A stretch of DNA of 31,172 nt from Gammaproteobacteria bacterium (GTDB taxonomy: Bacteria > Pseudomonadota > Gammaproteobacteria > DSM-16500). Each line of letters opens with the position of its first letter. Within the stretch, counting starts at the first letter, position 1. Below the pieces are notes generated by a model that saw nothing but the letters and a program-made list of their open reading frames with translations, was not told the DNA's origin and did not search any database. Positions 115 to 31,172 of this stretch are shown here, one piece after another. The stretch is taken from NCBI GenBank assembly GCA_009885665.1, contig VFKI01000155.1, forward strand, positions 1 to 31,172, in the 5' to 3' direction. The translations under genes and the position numbers were made by a program.

Positions 115-879
115 CTACATCCACCAGCGAATAAGCGCCGGAATATTGAAGCGCTCTTTTAATAATTGATCAAACGAAAATTGTGGTGAGCGACAAACGG
201 CGAATGAGGCAATCATTACCATCCATAATACAGCAAACTCCCAGCCGCCACCGACATTTGCCCAAATAAATCCCAGCATAAAATGATGACCCAGCAAAGT
301 GGCGATGAGTAAATATAGCACTGTTAAGCTGGCGCCGAGACGTGTGAATAATCCGAAAGATAGCGCAATGGCGGCGCCAAACTCACAAAACCCTGCCAGC
401 CAAACAAAAAAATCGGCATGCGCGACGCCCAGGGAGATAAATGCTTGGACATCCACTAAATGCGGCGCGGATCCGGCAAACAATTTTTCAGTAAAATGGG
501 GTACAAAATTAAGGCCAAGATAGAGGCGAATAAAGACAAGTTGCCAGTCGTGCCAATTGCCCGTTTGGCGGGCGCAATAGAAAAAATTTACCAGCGCAGC
601 GAGAAAACCGCACAATAACAGCCAAGTGACGGGTGATACATCATAAATACACGCAATGCGCCAGGCGATCATCATGCCAAGCAAACTCGGCAAATAGCCC
701 CAAATAAAACTTTGATAACTCAATAAGCAAAATACGATAGACCAGGCCAGCCATGCCAACATAAAGAAATGTGCGATGCCAGGTATGTTAGTTGCGGGTT
801 GTATGATCGTTAGTATGGCTGCGGCGCTGAGCGCAAGCAAGTTCAGCGTCGTTAAAATAACATGGCCATGGCTTGTCAT
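115..879 (-). CDS. DoxX-family membrane protein with extra N-terminal transmembrane helices
   Basis: 254 aa, hydrophobic throughout. C-terminal half has DoxX-like motifs IRLYLGLNFVPHFTEKL, GFCEFGAAIALSFGLFTRLGA and GGGWEFAVLW. Confidence 0.8.
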   Translation of the reverse strand: MTSHGHVILTTLNLLALSAAAILTIIQPATNIPGIAHFFMLAWLAWSIVFCLLSYQSFIWGYLPSLLGMMIAWRIACIYDVSPVTWLLLCGFLAALVNFFYCARQTGNWHDWQLVFIRLYLGLNFVPHFTEKLFAGSAPHLVDVQAFISLGVAHADFFVWLAGFCEFGAAIALSFGLFTRLGASLTVLYLLIATLLGHHFMLGFIWANVGGGWEFAVLWMVMIASFAVCRSPQFSFDQLLKERFNIPALIRWWM

Positions 880-1019
880 AATGTATCCTCACTTTTAGCG
901 CTTTTTTGAGCATCTACGGTGGGTTGTCTCCTTATCCAGTATTGTCGATATATTTTTTTTTACACGCTTTTTAACAAAAAAATGGCAAACTGCCGAATAC
1001 TTTTTAATCTTGAGGCTTT

Positions 1020-1047
1020 TAACTAGTTGATTTATATCAATTTTTTA
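1020..1047. promoter_or_regulatory. Palindromic site: FNR/CRP-family box TTGAT-N4-ATCAA overlapping two inverted IHF consensus matches
   Basis: TTGAT-TTAT-ATCAA at 1027-1040. WATCAANNNNTTR matches at 1035-1047 (+) and 1020-1032 (-). About 150 bp upstream of the DoxX start. Confidence 0.5.
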
Positions 1048-1088
1048 TTTAGAAAACCGTTTGTCTGTGTGTTGGCAATCGAACGCTC

Positions 1089-1162
1089 AGCGCGCGCCAT
1101 TGGCGATACATGCTATATGACAATAAGCGCGCGTTATTGGCGATACATGCCATATGACAATG
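1089..1162. repeat. Tandem duplication, 2 x 37 bp
   Basis: AGCGCGCGCCATTGGCGATACATGCTATATGACAATA (1089-1125) and AGCGCGCGTTATTGGCGATACATGCCATATGACAATG (1126-1162), 33/37 identical, no spacer. Confidence 0.9.
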
Positions 1163-1187
1163 CCATATGGCTTATGGCTTCTTACGA

Positions 1188-1580
1188 CTAACGTGAAGAC
1201 GATGTCTCCTGCTTACCATGTACCAATAGCTCGATTGCCATCAATAATGCCGAATTATCGATCGGTTTTTCAAATGAAACGGCGGCACCTAGCGTTTCAG
1301 ATAAATCCAGATAACCAATCGGATCCAAGCGACCGCCACCCGAAATTGCGATGATATCCATGTCTGGATGTTTATTGCGGACTTCTGAAATTAAGGTGAT
1401 ACCACTTTTTTTGGGCATAATGATATCGGTAATCATGATGTCAGGATTGCTGGTTTTAAGCATTTCTGTCGCTTCGTCACCATTGTTGGCTGTTTGCACC
1501 TGGTGGGAGGCGCGTGTCAATATTTGCGCCAACATATCACGTACTAATTCATCATCTTCAACCAGCAGAATGTTTGCCAT
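1188..1580 (-). CDS. Single-domain (CheY-like) response regulator
   Basis: Starts [10 protein letters not shown], with phospho-acceptor ITDIIMP, ISGGG and the conserved FEKP. GGAG ribosome-binding site 7 nt upstream of the ATG at 1580; the ORF-track start at 1778 lies inside the kinase gene. Confidence 0.85.
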   Translation of the reverse strand: MANILLVEDDELVRDMLAQILTRASHQVQTANNGDEATEMLKTSNPDIMITDIIMPKKSGITLISEVRNKHPDMDIIAISGGGRLDPIGYLDLSETLGAAVSFEKPIDNSALLMAIELLVHGKQETSSSR

Positions 1581-2655
1581 CTGTATTCTCCATATATTCA
1601 GGTAAATATAAAGTAAAAGTTGCACCACTACCCGGTGTGCTGTTGACGGTGATTTCGCCCATATGCTCTTTAACAATAGAGTGAACAGTCGATAAGCCGA
1701 GGCCAGTGCCACGCCCAACTTCTTTAGTCGTAAAAAAAGGTTCGAAAATACGTTCGCGCGTCGCCGCATCCATGCCATGGCCGGTATCCATCAGACTGAT
1801 TTTATAATAATGCGTAGCGTCATTTAATTTGGAAAACCCATGTGCTTCAGGTGACGATGCGCCAATACGGTCTAGCTGGACGGTAATGTCACCTTCGCCA
1901 TCCATCGCATCCACGGCATTGGTTATCAAGTTAACAATGACTTGATGTAGCTGAGTTTGATTACCCAAAATAGTATAGTCATCGGCAATAGGTTTGTAAT
2001 GAATAATAACACTGGCCGGAATAGTGGGTTTTAATAATGCCATCGCACCTTCAATGGCTTCGCCAAGATGGATGGGTTTTAAATCTTGATGTTGGCGACG
2101 GCTGAAAGCCAGAATACGCGCGACTAAATCTTGGCCACGTCGTGCCGCGGTCAGTACTTTACCCAAATTTTTATACAGTGTCGTATCAGGTGCGGAATCT
2201 TGCTGTGCCATTTCGGCGTAGCCCATGATGGCATATAACAAATTATTGAAGTCATGCGCAATACCGCCTGCTAGCGTGCCGATGGCTTGTAATTTTTGTC
2301 CTTGCAATAAGGCTTTTTCTAATTGTTGCTGATTGGCTTCAGTTTGCAAGCGTTCTGATAATTCTTTTTCGAAATTTGCCGTCATGGTGATGAGTTCGGC
2401 GCGATGACGACGGCCGAATTGTATCAAAAAAACGATGATGAGCGCGCTCACGGTAATGCAGCTACTGATGAGGAGCTCGACGGTATGGTCGGGTATATTG
2501 GGAAATATAGGCAGCTGCGACATAAAAAAGCTTGCAGCAATAACACAGATGATAAGGGTAACCAGTAGGGGTCGCCACAGGCTGGGGAGCGTTGCAGATG
2601 TTTTTAATGCTGTGTTGTCCATATAAGGCTTTTCATCCTGGTTAATCGAGCGCAT
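1558..2655 (-). CDS. Membrane-bound sensor histidine kinase (HisKA + HATPase_c)
   Basis: Two N-terminal TM segments, H-box [12 protein letters not shown]-box [30 protein letters not shown]. Start could be 2655 or 2622. Confidence 0.88.
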
Positions 2656-2740
2656 TAATAGCTTAATCGATTCTAGGCGTTGAGGCTACCACTGTCTTTC
2701 ATATATACTCTTCGACTGATGACGATGGGGTGGAGATGGC

Positions 2741-5700
2741 ATGCAGCTGAAAAAGATTAAACTCGCAGGATTTAAATCCTTTGTGGATCCTGTCATAGTG
2801 CCGGTTGAAAGCCATTTGGTGGCGATTGTGGGGCCCAATGGTTGCGGTAAATCCAATCTCATTGATGCCGTTTGTTGGGTGATGGGCGAAAGCTCCGCCA
2901 AATATTTGCGCGGCGAATCGCTCACCGATGTGATTTTTAATGGCTCAAGCGCGCGTAAACCTGTGGGTCAAGCGTCAGTCGAGTTAATATTTGATAACAC
3001 GGATGGCAAGCTGGGTGGCGAATATGCTAACTATGCTGAAGTTTCCATCCGTCGCACGATCAATCGCGATAGTGAATCGGCTTGGTATTTAAATGGCAGC
3101 CGCTGTCGGCGTCGCGATATCATCGATATTTTTTTGGGTACGGGTCTCGGGCCACGCAGTTATTCTATCATTGGCCAAAATATGATTTCACGTTTAATCG
3201 AAGCCAAGCCGGAAGAATTGCGTAATTATCTAGAAGAAGCCGCTGGTATTTCCAAATATCGTGAACGGCGCCGTGAAACGGAAACGCGGATCCAACATAC
3301 ACGTGAAAATTTAGCGCGCCTCGATGATATTCGCACTGAACTCGAGCGTCAGTTGGTCACATTAAAGCGTCAATCCGATGCGGCAGAAAAATTTAAAGTA
3401 TTAAAACGCGACGAGCGCACCTTGCGCGCTATATCATTAGCATTACAATGGCGTCAGCTGGATGGACGACGCGTCGATGATTCTTTACAAATTCAACAAC
3501 AAGAAACGGGGTTGGAAGCTAAGCAGGCGGAAGCGACGGCATTATCACTGTCCATCGAACAATTGCGCGATCGTCAAATAGAAACCAATGAAGCATTTCA
3601 AGGCGTACAACGGCGTTTTTATGATGCGGGTAATCACATTACGCGCATTGAACAAGATATTCACCATACGCGTGAACGTCGCCGGCAATGGCAAACAGAC
3701 CTCGATCAAACGCAACGTGAATGTCAGCACGCCGAACAAAAATTGACAGAGGCCGTTGCCGATCTCGCACAATTAACCGCCTCTTGTCAGCAACTTTTGC
3801 CGCAACGTGCCGCAGCGGCTGAAGCGGCTGAAGCAGCTAAAGTTGCAGCCATAGCGGCTGAAACAGCGGTTGCGCAATGGCAAAATCAATGGGATACATT
3901 TAGTCGCGAAACGGCGAAAGCGAATGAAACGGCGCGCGTTGAGCAAACGCGTATTACCCAATTGGAACAACGTTTAGTCCAACTGGCCGAACGCGATACG
4001 CGTCTTGTTGATGACATTAACCAATTGTCTAGCGGTGAGCAAGGGGATGTACTTGCAGCGTTACAAAGTAAAGTGGATGCAGCGGCCGGTGAAGTCGAGC
4101 AACACACGGTAGCACTTGCCGCATTGCGTAATGAAATGCAGACGCTAGAACATACGCAGCAACAACGTAATCGCGATGCAAATGGCGTACGCGAACGGTT
4201 ACAAAAATTACGTGGCCAGCAAGCCTCATTAGAAGCTTTACAACAAACGGCTTTGGGACAACGTGACAATCGTGTGACGCGCTGGTTGGAAGGACAACAA
4301 TTAAATCAGCGGCCGCGTCTTGCTAAGGGGTTAAAAGTGGCGGCGGGTTGGGAAGACGTCGTTGAAAAAGTATTGGGGATTTGTTTGCAAGCTGTCTGTG
4401 TGGATGCGCTGGCGGATGTGTTACAACGCGCAGATACTTTTGCGCATGGTAGTTTATGTTTAGTCGATAAAAATAATGCGGCGCGCTTAATCGATACACA
4501 AATTAACGCGAAACCGTTAACAAGTATTATTCAATCTGATTGGCCATTAGCCAGTCTCATTGCGGGTATTTATATTGCAGAAACCTTAGATGAAGCGCAA
4601 TCACTTGTTGCAACGCTTGCGGCGCATGAATCCGTTATTACCCGTAGCGGTATTTGGTTGGGGCCTGGCTGGTTGAAAGTATTACGGGAAGATAATCCTG
4701 CCGCCGGTGTATTGCAGCGTGAACAAGAATTAGCAACGCTTGTGCAAGATGCGGCAAGCTTGACGCGTGAATTGCAAACCTTAGAAACAGCGATCAGCGA
4801 TGGGCGCCAACAACGCGAGCAATTGGAAAAACAACGCGATATACAGCAAGCGCAATTAAATGCAATGACGACGGCAGCGGCAGAAATACGCACGCAATTG
4901 AAAATGCGCGCGGCGCAACAAGCAGAATTGACAGCGCGTCACGCGCGCTTACACAATGAGCAAGCATCGATTGCGGCGCAAACGACAACGCTACATAACG
5001 AATTGGCCGTCGCGCGCGAAAAGTGGCAGGCAGCGTTAGCATTATTAGAAACGCAAACCCGCCAGCGTGATCAATTGACTGCGGCGCGTGATAGTGTACG
5101 TCAAGCCGCGCAAACTGAACGTCATACCGCCGATACAACACGTGAAGCGGCGCATCATCTTGCGTTGCAATTGCAGGCAGCGCAATCGCGCCAACAAATT
5201 TTGCAGCAATCACAAGCACATTTGCAGCGACAACTGACAACAGCGACAGAGCGTTTGTCCGCTTTACAGAGCGATGGGGCAACGCTGGCTGCGGTTGAAA
5301 CCCTGGAAACTGAATTAACGGCTGCATTAAACGCACGTATGCTGATTGAAAATGAATTAAATGCTGCGCGTATGGCGGTCGATGCGTGTACCCATGAAAT
5401 GCGTGAATTAGAAAATACCCGCCATGAAGTAGAAAATGAAGTCAATCGCATTCGAGATATTCTGCAAGCTTTACGCGTGGAAAGTGAAGGTTTGCGTATT
5501 CGCGTTGAAGGCATTATTCAACAATTTGCTGAAATTCAAATTCGGCTAGAAGATGTGTTAGCAGAATTGCCGGCAGATGCAACAGTTGAGGCGTGTCATG
5601 CACAATTGGAACAAGTTGGCCGGCGTATTGCGCGCTTAGGCCCGATTAATTTGGTCGCGATTGATGAATATGCTACGTGCAATGAACGCAAAGAATATCT

Positions 5701-10607: not shown

Positions 10608-10701
10608 GTATCTACTACAAAAGATAGGGTAGGGGAACTGATCAATCGATTGAATGTGAGCTATTTCAATTCATTTATGCGCAGAGCCTTATCTGAGATA
10701 C
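10608..10701 (+). mobile_element. Chimeric copy of the family A MITE-like element
   Basis: Left 33 bp GTATCTACTACAAAAGATAGGGTAGGGGAACTG match family A. The interior is unrelated to family A and ends in the family B 17-mer. Right end GAGATAC (10695-10701). Flanks TTAGAAAC / TATAGAAAC. Confidence 0.75.
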
Positions 10702-10746
10702 TATAGAAACGTTGCGTTCTAATGTCCTCAGCAGCTTGATGATTTT

Positions 10747-11748: not shown

Positions 11749-12318
11749 ATGGAAACCCGCACTGTTTCACAATTACAACAGCTCGCCGAGCGCGCCGAAT
11801 GCCTGCATGACATGACGGCTATTCACCGTGCGCTCGACCGTATGGCAACCGAAATTACGCATAAATTGCAACAGGATAATCCGTTGGTATTATGCGTCAT
11901 GATTGGCGCATTGGTTCCTATGGGGCATTTAGTGACACGACTCAATTTTCCGCTTGAAATTGACTATATCCATGCCACGCGTTATCGCGGCAGTATGCGC
12001 CCAGGCGATTTACATTGGCTGGTCGAGCCGCGCCAATCGCTGGCGGGTCGCGCGGTATTAATTATGGATGACATCATGGATGGCGGCCACACCTTGGCAG
12101 CTATCATTGATTATTGTCAGCAGCAAGGCGCCAAATCCGTTCACACGGCGGTGATGATCAATAAAATTCGGCCGCGCGAAGCGGGCGTTACATTTGAGCC
12201 AGATTTTATTGGCCTTGATACACCCGATCGTTTTTTGATTGGCTTTGGGCTTGATTATGCGGAACACTTTCGCAATTTGCCTGGCATTTATGCTGTTGCC
12301 GCAGAGGATCAAACTTGA
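11749..12318 (+). CDS. hpt: Hypoxanthine-guanine phosphoribosyltransferase
   Basis: PRPP-binding motif VLIMDDIMDGGHTL, DYIHATRY, FLIGFGLDY..FRNLPGIY. GAGGA site favours ATG 11749 over 11716. Confidence 0.88.
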   Translation: METRTVSQLQQLAERAECLHDMTAIHRALDRMATEITHKLQQDNPLVLCVMIGALVPMGHLVTRLNFPLEIDYIHATRYRGSMRPGDLHWLVEPRQSLAGRAVLIMDDIMDGGHTLAAIIDYCQQQGAKSVHTAVMINKIRPREAGVTFEPDFIGLDTPDRFLIGFGLDYAEHFRNLPGIYAVAAEDQT

Positions 12319-14387
12319 TGCAATCACGGCGATCTGCATTACTGTGGTATCTGTTGTTATTGACGATCTTTTTTATATGGATTGAAATAGGCTTTTTGAT
12401 TCAACGTGACCAAATATACTTTGCGGATGTGTCGTTAGTCGCGCAAAATATATCGTTGCCGTGGGTGGCGATACCCGACATTGTCTATTATCTTGTGGTG
12501 CAAATTGCGCTCTACCTTTGCTGGTTATTTGGCATTTATTATCTCATGCAAGGCGTGCGCGCGGCGTTACACCTTACGCCCGCACAGACAGAAAATGTAG
12601 GCATTATCGTATGGTTTATTTCGCTTGCGTTTATTTTATTAGCAAATCAAATAAAGTATCCTGATTCTAAATTCAGTTTTGCTTGGCTAGCATTGGATTA
12701 TCCCGCATTATGTCGATGGGCATTTTATAGCGTTGCGACACTTTTTGCTGTCGTGTGTATCGTTGCATTGCTGGGATTTTTACAAACATTGCCGCGCACT
12801 TTTTTATTACTGACGAGCAGTGTCGCAATTATTTTCCTTGCATTACATTGGCATACAGCGAACCATTTGCCTGTGGTGGATCGCGGCACTACCGCTCGAC
12901 CCAATATCATTTTAATTGGCATTGATTCACTGCGTCCTGATTATTTAGGTAAGAATACGCCCGCGCTCAATGATTTTATGCAGCATGCTGTCGTTTTTAA
13001 TTATTCATTGACACCAATTGCACGCACCTATCCATCGTGGTTCAGTATTTTATCAGGCGAATATCCCAAAGTCAGCGGCATCCGCACCAATTTATTGGAT
13101 CCAGCGCGTTTTGATCTTAGCCAAACCTTACCTGCTGTGTTGCGCCGACATGATTATCACACTATATATGCAACCGATGAAACGCGTTTCAGTAATATTG
13201 ATGAACGCTATGGTTTTGATCAACGCTTGACGGCGCCGATAGGTGTCAATGATTTTTTACTTGGCACGGTCAATGATTTTCCATTATCCAATTTACTTGT
13301 TAATACTCGGCTTGGCCAATATTTATTTCCTTATAGTTATGCCAATCGACCGGCGTATTTTGATTATGATCCAGCGAGTTTTTTGCAACGTATTGCGCCC
13401 ACACTTGCCGAGCGACGCCAACATCCTTTATTTTTAGCGATTCACTTTTGCTTGCCGCATGCGCCTTATTTATGGGCAGATCTTGCAGCAGAAACGGTAA
13501 AACGCGAGGATTATCTCTATTCGGTCGCGCGCATGGATCTGCAGTTCGCCCATTTTATGCAAATATTACGTAAAGATGGTTTGTTACAACATAGCATTGT
13601 GATTGTTTTATCAGATCATGGTGAAGCGTTGGGTTTGCCGGGCGATCGCATCACCGATCCGCATTTATATATTCCCTCTGAAAAATATCAGAAAATCCCT
13701 TTATTTTATCCGCCTATGGTAGAGGATGAGCGTGTCAATGTCTCTAACGGTCATGGTACGGATGTATTAGGCGTGTCGCAATATCATACTGTGTTAGCGG
13801 TGCGCAGCTATGATGTTGCACCTATGCCGCCTAAAACTATAACGGATTTGGTGTCATTAATGGATATTCGTCCGACGCTGTTAGCGTATCTGCATGTGCA
13901 AGATCCGCATGCCAGTAATGGATACTCATTATTACCGGCGCTGCTAGGCAAGCAAACCCGTGTGCCGTTACATACGGATTTTGTCACGGAAAGTGATTTT
14001 TCACCGCCGGCTATTCGGACTATATTTCCAGACACGCACAAAGTATTTTTGATGGGAGTTCATTATTTTCGAATTGATCCGCATACTGGGCGGGTGTTGG
14101 TACGCGATGATATGTTGCATAAAATTATTGCCAGCAAACAATACGCTGACTTTCATGGCGATTGGGTATTAGCGCTTTATCCACGACAAGATGGCAGTCA
14201 ATGGCACGTATTGGTCAATCAGCGCACTGGGCGGTGGACTTTAGATATGCACGATGCATTTGCGCAGCGCGCCCCGGTGCAAAGCATGATGCAGATATTG
14301 TATAAATTCGTAACCATTCAGCACATTTCTCAAAAAACACCCGCGAGGCCAGGTGCAACCAGACTCTACGCGATGGGGGATTCTTAA
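12315..14387 (+). CDS. Membrane-anchored alkaline-phosphatase-superfamily (sulfatase-fold) hydrolase/transferase
   Basis: About 5 N-terminal TM helices, then PNIILIGIDSLRPD, RTYPSWFSILSG, HFCLPHAPY, IVLSDHGE. Start overlaps the hpt stop. Confidence 0.82.
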   Translation: MMQSRRSALLWYLLLLTIFFIWIEIGFLIQRDQIYFADVSLVAQNISLPWVAIPDIVYYLVVQIALYLCWLFGIYYLMQGVRAALHLTPAQTENVGIIVWFISLAFILLANQIKYPDSKFSFAWLALDYPALCRWAFYSVATLFAVVCIVALLGFLQTLPRTFLLLTSSVAIIFLALHWHTANHLPVVDRGTTARPNIILIGIDSLRPDYLGKNTPALNDFMQHAVVFNYSLTPIARTYPSWFSILSGEYPKVSGIRTNLLDPARFDLSQTLPAVLRRHDYHTIYATDETRFSNIDERYGFDQRLTAPIGVNDFLLGTVNDFPLSNLLVNTRLGQYLFPYSYANRPAYFDYDPASFLQRIAPTLAERRQHPLFLAIHFCLPHAPYLWADLAAETVKREDYLYSVARMDLQFAHFMQILRKDGLLQHSIVIVLSDHGEALGLPGDRITDPHLYIPSEKYQKIPLFYPPMVEDERVNVSNGHGTDVLGVSQYHTVLAVRSYDVAPMPPKTITDLVSLMDIRPTLLAYLHVQDPHASNGYSLLPALLGKQTRVPLHTDFVTESDFSPPAIRTIFPDTHKVFLMGVHYFRIDPHTGRVLVRDDMLHKIIASKQYADFHGDWVLALYPRQDGSQWHVLVNQRTGRWTLDMHDAFAQRAPVQSMMQILYKFVTIQHISQKTPARPGATRLYAMGDS

Positions 14388-14458
14388 AGGGGAGAATCGC
14401 GATTCTTCCCCTTAAGTGGCGTAGCGAGGGCTTTGCCCGAGCAGCCATCTGAGAATAG
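14310..14458 (-). mobile_element. Palindromic insertion related to family A, overlapping the 3' end of the sulfatase-fold gene
   Basis: Flanked by direct repeat TTGTATAAATTC (14298-14309, 14459-14470). Contains GCGATGGGGGA (14370-14380, identical to family A minus strand) and a 34-nt hairpin at 14383-14416 resembling the family A central hairpin. Confidence 0.6.
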
Positions 14459-14653
14459 TTGTATAAATTCATTCATTAATGCACAGCACGCGTATTAAGC
14501 CTATTTTTTGCACTTACCGTGTAAAAAACACCTCGCGAGCCCGCCATGTTATGTTAACGTATTGAAAAAACATAAGTGTTTGCATGTGTCCAATTTGTGT
14601 TCTGCTTAGGGTTATCCCTGATGCGACCGAGGCTACCGTGGCTTTCCAAGAGG

Positions 14654-20774: not shown

Positions 20775-20824
20775 ATATCTCCTACATAAATTAGGGTAGT
20801 GGGCAGCGATGGGGGAATAGATAC
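20775..20824 (-). mobile_element. Internally deleted 50-bp derivative of family A
   Basis: Minus strand reads GTATCTATT-CCCCCATCGCTGCCCACTACCCTAATTTATGTAGGAGATAT, i.e. the left terminus joined to the right arm. Flanks TTTATTTC / TTCACTTC (6/8). Confidence 0.85.
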
Positions 20825-23328: not shown

Positions 23329-23365
23329 AAAAATTAACTCCTGATAAAAAATGTAGAAAAATATA

Positions 23366-23505
23366 GTATCTATTACAAAAGATAGGGTAGAGGAACTGAG
23401 TGCGCAGCACACTGCATTGACAAGCGTCAGAGGGGGAGAATAGCGCTCTCCCCCTCTGACAACTCCCCCATCGCTACCCATTACCCTAATTTATGTAGGA
23501 GATAC
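23366..23505 (+). mobile_element. Full-length family A MITE-like element, 140 bp
   Basis: Imperfect TIRs GTATCTATTACAAAAGATAGGGTA / GTATCTCCTACATAAATTAGGGTA (reverse complement of right end). Perfect 8-bp flanking duplication AAAATATA (23358-23365, 23506-23513). Perfect 14-bp central stem GTCAGAGGGGGAGA/TCTCCCCCTCTGAC. Confidence 0.9.
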
Positions 23506-23510
23506 AAAAT

Positions 23511-23541
23511 ATAAATTAAAGCCGGCCTACTATAAGCCGAC
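23511..23541 (-). terminator. Candidate intrinsic terminator of the RND operon
   Basis: Minus strand GTCGGCTT-ATAGT-AGGCCGGC (8-bp stem with G-U pairs) followed by TTTAATTTAT. Confidence 0.45.
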
Positions 23542-27778: not shown

Positions 27779-27831
27779 GAACGTATCATCCTTTTAAAAC
27801 GCATTTTTTTCTCGATTTATACAAAAAATAC

Positions 27832-27973
27832 GTATCTATTACAAAAGATAGGGTAGAGGAACTGAGTACGCAGCACACTGCATTGACGAGCGTCATGAGG
27901 GGAGAGCTGCGCTTCTCCCCTCCCGACACCCACCCCATCGCAGCCTTATACCCTAATTTATGTAGGAGAATAC
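27832..27973 (+). mobile_element. Full-length family A MITE-like element, diverged copy
   Basis: Aligns end to end with 23366-23505; 9-bp central stem GAGGGGAGA/TCTCCCCTC; right end GAGAATAC abuts the degP stop. No clear flanking duplication. Confidence 0.9.
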
Positions 27974-31108: not shown

Positions 31109-31172
31109 GTATCATTACAAAAGATAGGGTAGAGGAACTGAGTGCGCGGCAAACTGCATTGGCAAGCGTCAG
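31109..31172 (+). mobile_element. Family A element, left part, truncated by window end
   Basis: Matches 23366-23430 with one deletion and three substitutions. Confidence 0.9.

Follow-up and report, generated by a model that had tools for sequence, protein, structure and literature searches.

In this work we describe a family of short repeated elements, designated family A, whose reference copy occupies positions 23366-23505 of a 31,172-nt stretch of DNA (the window, which is contig C132 of its assembly) from an uncultured member of the Coxiellaceae. Family A is very probably a MITE (miniature inverted-repeat transposable element), i.e. a 140-bp non-autonomous DNA transposon without a gene of its own, which was moved by a transposase acting in trans, is now decaying, and carries a central module shared among several MITE families. 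Its MITE nature, already put forward in the original prediction from the window alone, follows from the presence of terminal inverted repeats (TIRs), the lack of coding capacity, a target duplication of fixed 8-bp length, A/T-rich intergenic targets and a paralogous empty site. Taken by itself, family A is one more lineage-specific MITE; the feature deserving follow-up is the conserved, covarying module that it has in common with MITEs bearing different ends.

The host is represented by a metagenome-assembled genome (MAG) of 1,540,532 bp in 193 contigs (46.4% G+C), which is 98% complete by marker genes and from which repeats may have been left unbinned. Its DNA is present in freshwater-sediment metagenome runs at ~3-5x depth, and the nearest named relatives of a protein encoded in the window come from uncultured Coxiellaceae/Legionellales MAGs (51-60% amino-acid identity).

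Anatomy of the reference copy and traces of transposition

The reference copy and its flanking duplication comprise the following features:

23366-23505, plus strand: full-length family A element (probable MITE), 140 bp, the copy nearest to the family consensus (96.4%)
23358-23365, no strand: left copy of the 8-bp target-site duplication AAAATATA, a perfect match to the right copy
23506-23513, no strand: right copy of the 8-bp duplication AAAATATA, directly flanking the element
23366-23390, plus strand: left TIR, GTATCTATTACAAAAGATAGGGTAG, 25 nt
23481-23505, plus strand: right TIR, reverse complement GTATCTCCTACATAAATTAGGGTAA, 25 nt
23404-23415, plus strand: hairpin 1, GCAG-CACA-CTGC, with a 4-bp stem, in the same slot as the sequence-variable hairpin of all core-bearing elements
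23426-23460, no strand: central palindrome GTCAGAGGGGGAGA-ATAGCGC-TCTCCCCCTCTGAC, the form that the widespread GGGGAGAATCGCGATTCTCCCC core takes in family A
23461-23474, plus strand: conserved tail AACTCCCCCATCGC, found directly 3' of the core in all families

The element runs from GTATCTATTACAAAAGATAGGGTAG to TTACCCTAATTTATGTAGGAGATAC, with GTATCT...AGATAC as its ends, and the outer end of the family is GTATCTATTACAAAAGATAGGG, which has an inverted partner at the other end. These ends, the imperfect TIRs and the perfect AAAATATA duplication had been described beforehand and are confirmed here, the TIRs being 25 nt long and complementary at 19 of 25 positions in the reference copy. The accompanying claim that no transposase is encoded also held, as the longest stop-free frame of the 140-bp element is 41 codons. 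Predicted folds of either strand, as single-stranded DNA or as RNA, pair the ends of the element with each other and have energies 5.6 to 7.0 standard deviations below those of shuffled sequences (DNA and RNA). They contain the 14-bp G+C-rich stem previously proposed, within 23426-23460, as well as the first of two proposed small hairpins, GCAG-CACA-CTGC; the second, TGAC-AAGC-GTCA (23418-23429), is absent from the minimum-energy folds, where it is out-competed by the long stem, which takes its GTCA. No Rfam model reached its gathering score anywhere in the window, the matches at E<=1 being noise (microRNA-precursor hairpin models and one weak small-RNA model), and neither a sigma-70-like promoter nor an intrinsic-terminator pattern was found within the element. 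A terminator-like hairpin of the upstream acrB-type gene lies just outside it, at 23521-23541.

Tabulation of the flanks, as the original prediction had proposed, provided evidence for transposition across the genome. For 40 full copies, flanks were compared at the boundaries predicted by the profile, with the left flank of one copy set against the right flank of another as control. Agreement of the 8-nt flanks at six or more of eight positions was observed in 23 of the 40 copies, compared with 1.4% of control pairs, and agreement at seven or more in 19 copies, compared with 0.19% of control pairs. Mean flank identity reaches 0.68 at length 8, against 0.27-0.35 at the other lengths from 4 to 12. 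The duplicated octamers each differ from all others and are 72% A+T (~80-87% at the six inner positions), relative to 53.6% for the genome. Furthermore, 131 of the 156 family A loci lie between open reading frames (ORFs), which take up 88% of the genome. Perfect duplications also surround two-ended derivatives of the element, namely AAAAGTTA at C4:5848-5937 and GAATATCG at C123:5573-5758.

An empty site is offered by a second abundant repeat of the same genome, which is a repeated target of family A insertion:

Window 27793-27831; C180:13626-13703, C46:1162-1239 and C177:~1760-1925: family B, an abundant MITE-like family with arms CCGACATTCCGCACCAAAGTATTTTTTGTATAAATCGAGGCAAAAATGCG..., of which at least 45 copies match one 79-nt probe

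The family A copy at C101:6388-6528 interrupts a family B element, and deletion in silico of this copy together with one duplication leaves a sequence that aligns through the junction, at 88-97% identity, with at least 45 family B copies that are uninterrupted. These family B copies are the paralogous empty site for the C101 insertion.

At each insertion, an A/T-rich and almost always intergenic target was duplicated over exactly 8 bp. A mechanism consistent with these findings would have a DDE-type transposase, supplied in trans, recognise the GTATCT... ends and cut and paste family A with staggered cuts of 8 bp. The transposase would since have been lost from the genome, or was not binned, and the family would be decaying, with deletions from the very stable central palindrome leaving roughly half of the loci as one-ended stumps.

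Copy number, decay and the search for a transposase

A profile built from 35 full copies identified, by nhmmer, 156 distinct family A loci amounting to ~1.2% of the genome, with 18 matches touching contig ends; the original prediction had guessed at hundreds of copies. The loci include 42 full-length copies and 16 two-ended derivatives formed by deletion or insertion, among them mini forms of 65-97 bp. Five of these derivatives share a longer form, in which a 65-70-bp insert occupies the tip of the central stem:

C156:11533-11747, C183:2951-3165, C62:4328-4542, C166:2726-2936 and C153:1-213: family A subfamily of 211-217 bp

The insert of this subfamily contains AAAAACGGCTTTCCTGCCGTTTTTT, which resembles a bidirectional terminator hairpin. 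One-ended fragments, ~75 in all, consist of ~57 left fragments located away from contig ends and 15-18 right fragments, and a further five loci are internal pieces. Breakpoints are concentrated, with 40 of the 57 left fragments ending at profile positions 50-66, a 17-nt stretch from hairpin 1 to the foot of the long palindrome, while right fragments tend to begin on the other side of the palindrome. This distribution suggests that the central palindrome may itself provoke deletions.

Identity to the consensus is 70.7-96.4% for full copies, and pairs of full copies have a median identity of 80%, the best pair reaching 96.4%. Decay has affected many of the duplications, and truncation most of the loci. 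Family A looks old and orphaned, and is probably now extinct as a mobile family. Two further observations concern left-end sequence of family A. At C123:2701-2859 and C53:1652-1755, family A positions 9-56 (the remainder of the TIR and hairpin 1) are present as tandem 47-nt units, three on C123 and two on C53; and at C58:11018-11099 a family A left end falls in the last codons of a 546-aa ORF resembling adenylate-forming enzymes, to which it gives the C-terminal residues and the stop codon.

The original prediction held that the elements are mobilised in trans, and recommended a search for long elements with the same ends enclosing a transposase ORF. No such element occurs in the assembly, which lacks any repeat longer than 1 kb, and family A TIR pairs spaced 1.3-1.8 kb apart enclose ordinary housekeeping genes. 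A Pfam search of the genome returned no IS256 (PF00872, Transposase_mut), IS1595 (PF12762), IS4/IS5 (DDE_Tnp_1), Y1 or IS6-type (IS240) transposase. The sole match to PF01610, the domain expected of an ISL3 parent, scores 41.5 bits and represents a domain resemblance in the C-terminal region of a 392-aa fatty-acid desaturase (C177:1935-3113, minus strand). Derivation from ISL3, IS256 or IS1595 would thus fit the 8-bp duplication, but no such transposase is present in the assembly. Matches to rve were assigned to an IS3 orfB remnant and to an IS21-type istAB element with TGT... ends, and IS110 is represented by a transposase gene fragment on C170 that is split by an IS66 element; the ends of these transposase elements are unrelated to those of family A, and none was retained as a parent. 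At this last locus (C170:622-3175) the IS66-family element (665-3130) is intact and sits inside the IS110-family transposase gene, and its flanks repeat ~40 nt (AAATAATTGAGAATTACAAAGATAAAATCAGCAGTATTTT), possibly through an error of assembly or through a duplication of unusual kind.

IS66 elements usually duplicate 8 bp, and by the ISfinder rule their ends begin 5'-GTAA. In duplication length they resemble family A, and their initial bases recall those of family C (described below) and its relatives in other genomes, which start GTAAC. However, all inspected IS66 ends read GTAAGCG... and have no further likeness to the MITE arms; the ends of the resident IS66 (GTAAGCGATCC...), like those of six IS66 copies from other carrier genomes, have just GTA in common with family A, which starts GTATC. 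The resident IS66 was accordingly rejected as a parent.

Searches beyond the assembly gave a similar picture. Neither 185,579 species genomes nor 241 million metagenome records contained a match to a 26-mer of the TIR and adjacent sequence, and a degenerate pattern of the two TIRs gave five single chance matches in the same metagenome records and none in viral contigs, in scans from which records of the host genome itself may have been hidden. With up to two mismatches, the degenerate TIR pattern has 144 matches in the host genome as opposed to 0-1 in each of 85 other Coxiellaceae genomes, which is the level of a reversed-pattern control. The whole element likewise had no match in two genomes of the same genus or in other relatives searched (~100 genomes in all). 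Among the genomes searched, and as judged from pattern matching, the termini of family A are restricted to its host; the original prediction had not recognised them from any named IS or repeat. No transposase with matching ends was found in the assembly, the 85 relatives, the metagenome records or the viral contigs; a multi-copy insertion sequence (IS) could simply be unbinned, the genome being a MAG. The lack of a cognate IS lowers our confidence in the mechanistic detail, not in the assignment to MITEs. Accepted MITEs such as Correia and QMITE are likewise without a known autonomous IS.

Several observations weigh against the interpretation as a trans-mobilised, decaying MITE. An autonomous element with family A ends is missing from the assembly. 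The two same-genus genomes, with just ~68% DNA identity and no synteny at the 23366 site, offer no orthologous site for comparison, and no empty allele was found in contigs of the source-sample metagenome, which are of low depth and break at repeats. Left stumps outnumber right ones (57 compared with 15), an excess that weaker detection of the right remnant, which is shorter, explains only in part. In addition, conservation of the core across genera, presented below, is unlike the prediction for purely selfish neutral filler.

A different account of the missing enzyme, which we regard as unlikely, is that family A is still active and that its transposase resides on a multi-copy IS collapsed in the short-read assembly or left unbinned. 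The fragmented state of the MAG, its low depth in the source runs and the 18 matches at contig ends are compatible with such a loss, as are the perfect 8-bp duplications at several copies and at two-ended derivatives. However, no pair of full copies exceeds 96.4% identity, most loci are truncated, and the metagenome records hold only the five chance matches to the TIR pattern and the viral contigs none, with the 26-mer found in neither genomes nor metagenomes. The predicted mobilisation in trans therefore applies to the past of the family rather than to any demonstrated present activity, given the lack of a transposase in the assembly and the identity of the best pair.

A central module shared among families and genomes

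When Coxiellaceae genomes were searched with the whole element at the DNA level, matches were confined to element positions 66-109. The corresponding pattern, GGGGAGA-N-TCTCCCC-N-CCCCATCGC, has 108 sites in the host genome, of which 52 belong to family A; the other 56 are also situated in the middle of elements, whose arms are quite different from those of family A. The shared module consists of a variable hairpin, followed by the perfect 22-nt palindrome GGGGAGAATCGCGATTCTCCCC and then by CCCCATCGCG, with the tail CCCCATCGC invariant and 6-9 nt after the core hairpin. At least four unrelated end types are found among core-bearing MITE-like elements (GTATCT..., GTAACTATTCAG..., CAGCAATTCCCGC... 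and ATACCCATTAC...), and the host genome contains the following families in addition to family A:

Family C: ends GTAACTATTCAGATGG... (GTAACTATTCAG-type), ~155 bp, 8-bp duplications
Family D: (TATA)GTATCTCAGATAAAT.../...TCTGAGAAGC tips, ~150 bp; window 10642-10702, C180:7596-7746, C70:1485-1634 and others
A rarer core-bearing family: ATACCCATTAC-type arms

Outside the Coxiellaceae, the GTAACTATTCAG ends of family C are also found in three genomes from other gammaproteobacterial families, G027, G364 and G194. No 8-bp duplication was seen at the boundaries used for family D, which is always bracketed by TATA and may have TA or TATA as its target duplication. At their extreme tips, families A, C and D are alike (GTATCTATT, GTAACTATT and GTATCTCAG), a likeness that hints at related transposases. 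As the module is common to MITE families with different ends, it evidently serves as a crossover point that gives rise to chimeric elements, and chimeras with a family A left part and a family C right part, joined inside or just after the core, were found at C29:580, C107:27054 and C173:6397.

The distribution of the module extends well beyond the host. Allowing two mismatches, GGGGAGAATCGCGATTCTCCCC is present in 25 of 86 Coxiellaceae genomes, representing 8 of 21 genera, with 73 copies in the host genome, 34 in G074 and 28 in G094, whereas neither genome of the same genus has it. Allowing one mismatch, it is present in 13 of 400 other gammaproteobacterial genomes drawn evenly from the class, including 53 copies in G027, 23 in G364 and 21 in G244. 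A reversed-pattern control gave no match in any genome, and GGGGAGAATCGCGATTCTCCCC was not found in IMG/VR viral contigs or, as a sequence, in the searchable literature. In G027, G244, G364, G194 and G269, all from other gammaproteobacterial families, 3-53 copies of the identical 22-nt palindrome are carried by elements of ~180 bp with 8-bp duplications. The arm-type pairs of G244 (a complete genome of 2.0 Mb with 21 cores) are of MITE size only, without a full-length parent, and its two longer candidates enclose housekeeping genes; core-bearing elements are thus orphans there as well.

Layout is nearly constant among 39 examples: an arm with a terminal hairpin comes first, then the variable hairpin and a closing stem that precede the core, and beyond the core follow the complementary closing stem, (A)ATCCCCATCGCG and the second arm. 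Perfect 8-bp duplications surround several whole core-bearing units, e.g. TATTAATC, TTCTAATT and TATGATTA. The hairpin upstream of the core keeps its shape with unrelated sequences among element types, and at least eight versions of the closing stem, all fully complementary, are found (among them TCAGA/TCTGA, TTAAG/CTTAA, CAAAG/CTTTG, CAAGA/TCTTG, TCAAG/CTTGA, TTAGA/TCTAA, CCAAG/CTTGG and CCGG/CCGG).

These observations raise the possibility, which we put forward tentatively, that the central module rather than the TIRs is the conserved functional unit of a superfamily of 8-bp-duplicating MITEs with swappable termini, present in Coxiellaceae and several other gammaproteobacterial families and kept for protein recognition or for its nucleic-acid structure. 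A cis-acting transposition site and a host-factor site would both be candidates for its role. If so, the conserved part would be the internal core, the reverse of the usual rule for MITEs.

A less probable reading again, and one we hold to be rather doubtful, is that the host keeps the elements or their core for a function of its own, as a transcript-stabilising or transcript-terminating RNA hairpin, as a small RNA or as a site bound by a DNA-binding protein. Such a role is suggested by the identity of the 22-nt palindrome across genera whose proteins are ~55-60% identical, by a closing stem that covaries through at least eight variants, by the constant position of the variable hairpin before the core, by strong predicted folding relative to shuffled sequences, and by the transcription of Coxiella burnetii QMITE loci as small RNAs (PMC5896051). 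Orientation relative to genes speaks against it. In full copies, a gene start is the neighbour faced by the left end in 14 cases and a gene end in 16, the counts for the right end being 18 and 18; in co-directional intergenic regions, 12 full copies lie with and 13 against transcription, as do 16 and 16 left fragments. The core plus tail is similarly without bias, both in family A (15 with, 12 against) and in other families (7 with, 11 against). Given this genome-wide lack of orientation bias and the absence of a consensus promoter or terminator inside the element, a promoter or terminator role of family A was rejected. Furthermore, the module is patchily distributed (25 of 86 genomes of the family and neither of the two same-genus genomes), and truncation erodes the copies freely.

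The position of CCCCATCGC 6-9 nt beyond the core hairpin also recalls the arrangement of hairpin plus cleavage motif at HUH sites. On this basis the elements could be compared with REP/REPIN-like hairpin elements spread by a single-strand nuclease or transposase (RAYT/Y1, IS200/IS605-type or GIY-YIG 'Ssn'-type), an explanation to which we attach very little credence. REP/REPIN elements with RAYT have a hairpin with a GTAG/CGTC tag but neither a TIR-bounded unit nor a target duplication. Enzymes of these kinds do not make exact 8-bp duplications and TIRs, both of which family A possesses; the host genome has no Y1_Tnp match; and the sole GIY-YIG protein in the host and in G027 is UvrC-sized, a small one occurring in a genome that lacks the core. 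For family A as a whole, a REP/REPIN-like nature is largely refuted.

Three further candidates for the origin or movement of the module were rejected. As a target of IS110/IS1111 the core would be expected alongside these elements, but there is no co-occurrence, and G074 and G094 are core-rich yet lack IS110. Nor does the core travel with IS66, which is found in 47 of 86 Coxiellaceae genomes, being present in 16 of 25 carriers of the core and 31 of 61 non-carriers, and absent from G027 (53 cores) and G074 (34 cores). Finally, ARAGORN detected no tRNA, which disposes of a tRNA-like origin for the tail.

A 1.5-Mb Coxiella-like genome thus contains at least four MITE families built around one palindromic module, which is multi-copy in distant Gammaproteobacteria. 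If functional, the module would offer a way into the recognition and movement of orphan MITEs, a question shared with Correia elements and QMITEs, and it could act as a recombination hotspot at which element ends are shuffled.

Comparison with known systems and other copies in the window

MITEs are amply documented in bacteria, the same family included. QMITE1 (45 copies) and QMITE2 (78 copies) together make up 0.93% of the C. burnetii genome; QMITE2 measures ~190 bp, is bounded by TIRs and unique direct repeats of 7-9 bp, has truncated copies that are REP-like, and no transposase is known for it (PMC5896051). Compared through their published description rather than by sequence, QMITE1/2 and family A are both Coxiellaceae elements of ~140-190 bp, non-coding, with TIRs, short direct repeats and no cognate transposase known. 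Both have tens of copies (0.93% of the genome for QMITE, ~1.2% for family A alone), many of them shorter and without TIRs or duplications, and some copies of each overlap the 3' ends of genes. QMITE2 is a hotspot for IS1111, whereas core presence in the genomes examined here does not track IS110-family transposases; these 86 genomes, among which C. burnetii does not seem to be represented, include none with the ~20 IS1111 copies expected of that species. As MITEs with TIRs and 7-9-bp duplications are already on record in Coxiellaceae, the suggestion that family A represents an undescribed system stands for its sequence, which is new, but not for its kind (PMC5896051). In addition, a large census found conserved MITEs in 99.6% of Legionella genomes, and some core-bearing elements may therefore already sit unnamed in catalogues (PMC11602168).

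The Correia (NEMIS) elements of Neisseria and the ERIC/IRU elements of enterobacteria are likewise orphan, structured and intergenic, 100-160 bp in length with ~25-bp TIRs and no known transposase, and they too have length variants that arise through internal deletions or insertions (PMC10969869). They differ from family A in duplicating TA rather than 8 bp, and the sequences are unrelated. We know of no report of an internal module common to Correia/ERIC-type families with different ends. BOX elements and BIMEs are also modular, with recombinant and chimeric forms common, but they lack TIRs and a duplication of fixed length, whereas the whole units described here are bounded by TIRs and 8-bp duplications.

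Within the window, the original prediction had counted five copies of family A and a relative at 14310. All five derive from family A, but only two, the reference copy and the one at 27832, are full length, and the relative belongs to family C. Apart from the reference copy, these elements are:

27832-27973, plus strand: second full copy of family A (85% identity with the reference), whose central stem is a variant one and which belongs to the core-variant subfamily GAGGGGAGAGCTGCGCTTCTCCCCTC
31109-31172, plus strand: left part of family A, cut by the contig end
10608-10702, plus strand: chimeric two-ended element, in which a family A left end (34 nt, 10608-10641) is fused to an inverted family D arm ending ...TCTGAGATAC
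20775-20824, minus strand: family A internal-deletion derivative of 50 nt that keeps both tips, one as 10 nt and the other as ~40 nt
14310-14462, minus strand: family C element with a canonical core and ends GTAACCATTCAG.../...GTAAC-type (GTAAC...GTTAC-type), not family A

On its left side the 27832 copy adjoins a family B remnant, and its duplication is not recognisable. The chimera at 10608-10702 is flanked by TTAGAAAC and TATAGAAAC, and the flanks of the 50-nt derivative, TTTATTTC and TTCACTTC, agree at six of eight positions. The family C element has an 8-bp duplication, ATAAATTC, at 14302-14309 and 14463-14470, and the central module is the sole part that it has in common with family A. 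Its insertion into the 3' end of an ORF (12315-14387) means that the encoded protein ends inside the element. In this way MITE insertions alter the ends of genes, family C having rewritten a C-terminus at 14298-14480. Family A in turn accounts for the fragmentation of the MAG into 193 contigs and is usable as a strain marker.

Elsewhere in the window, positions 1089-1161 hold two tandem 36-nt direct repeats (AGCGCGCGCCATTGGCGATACATGCTATATGACAAT) that are 92% alike, with 37-nt spacing, between two minus-strand ORFs.

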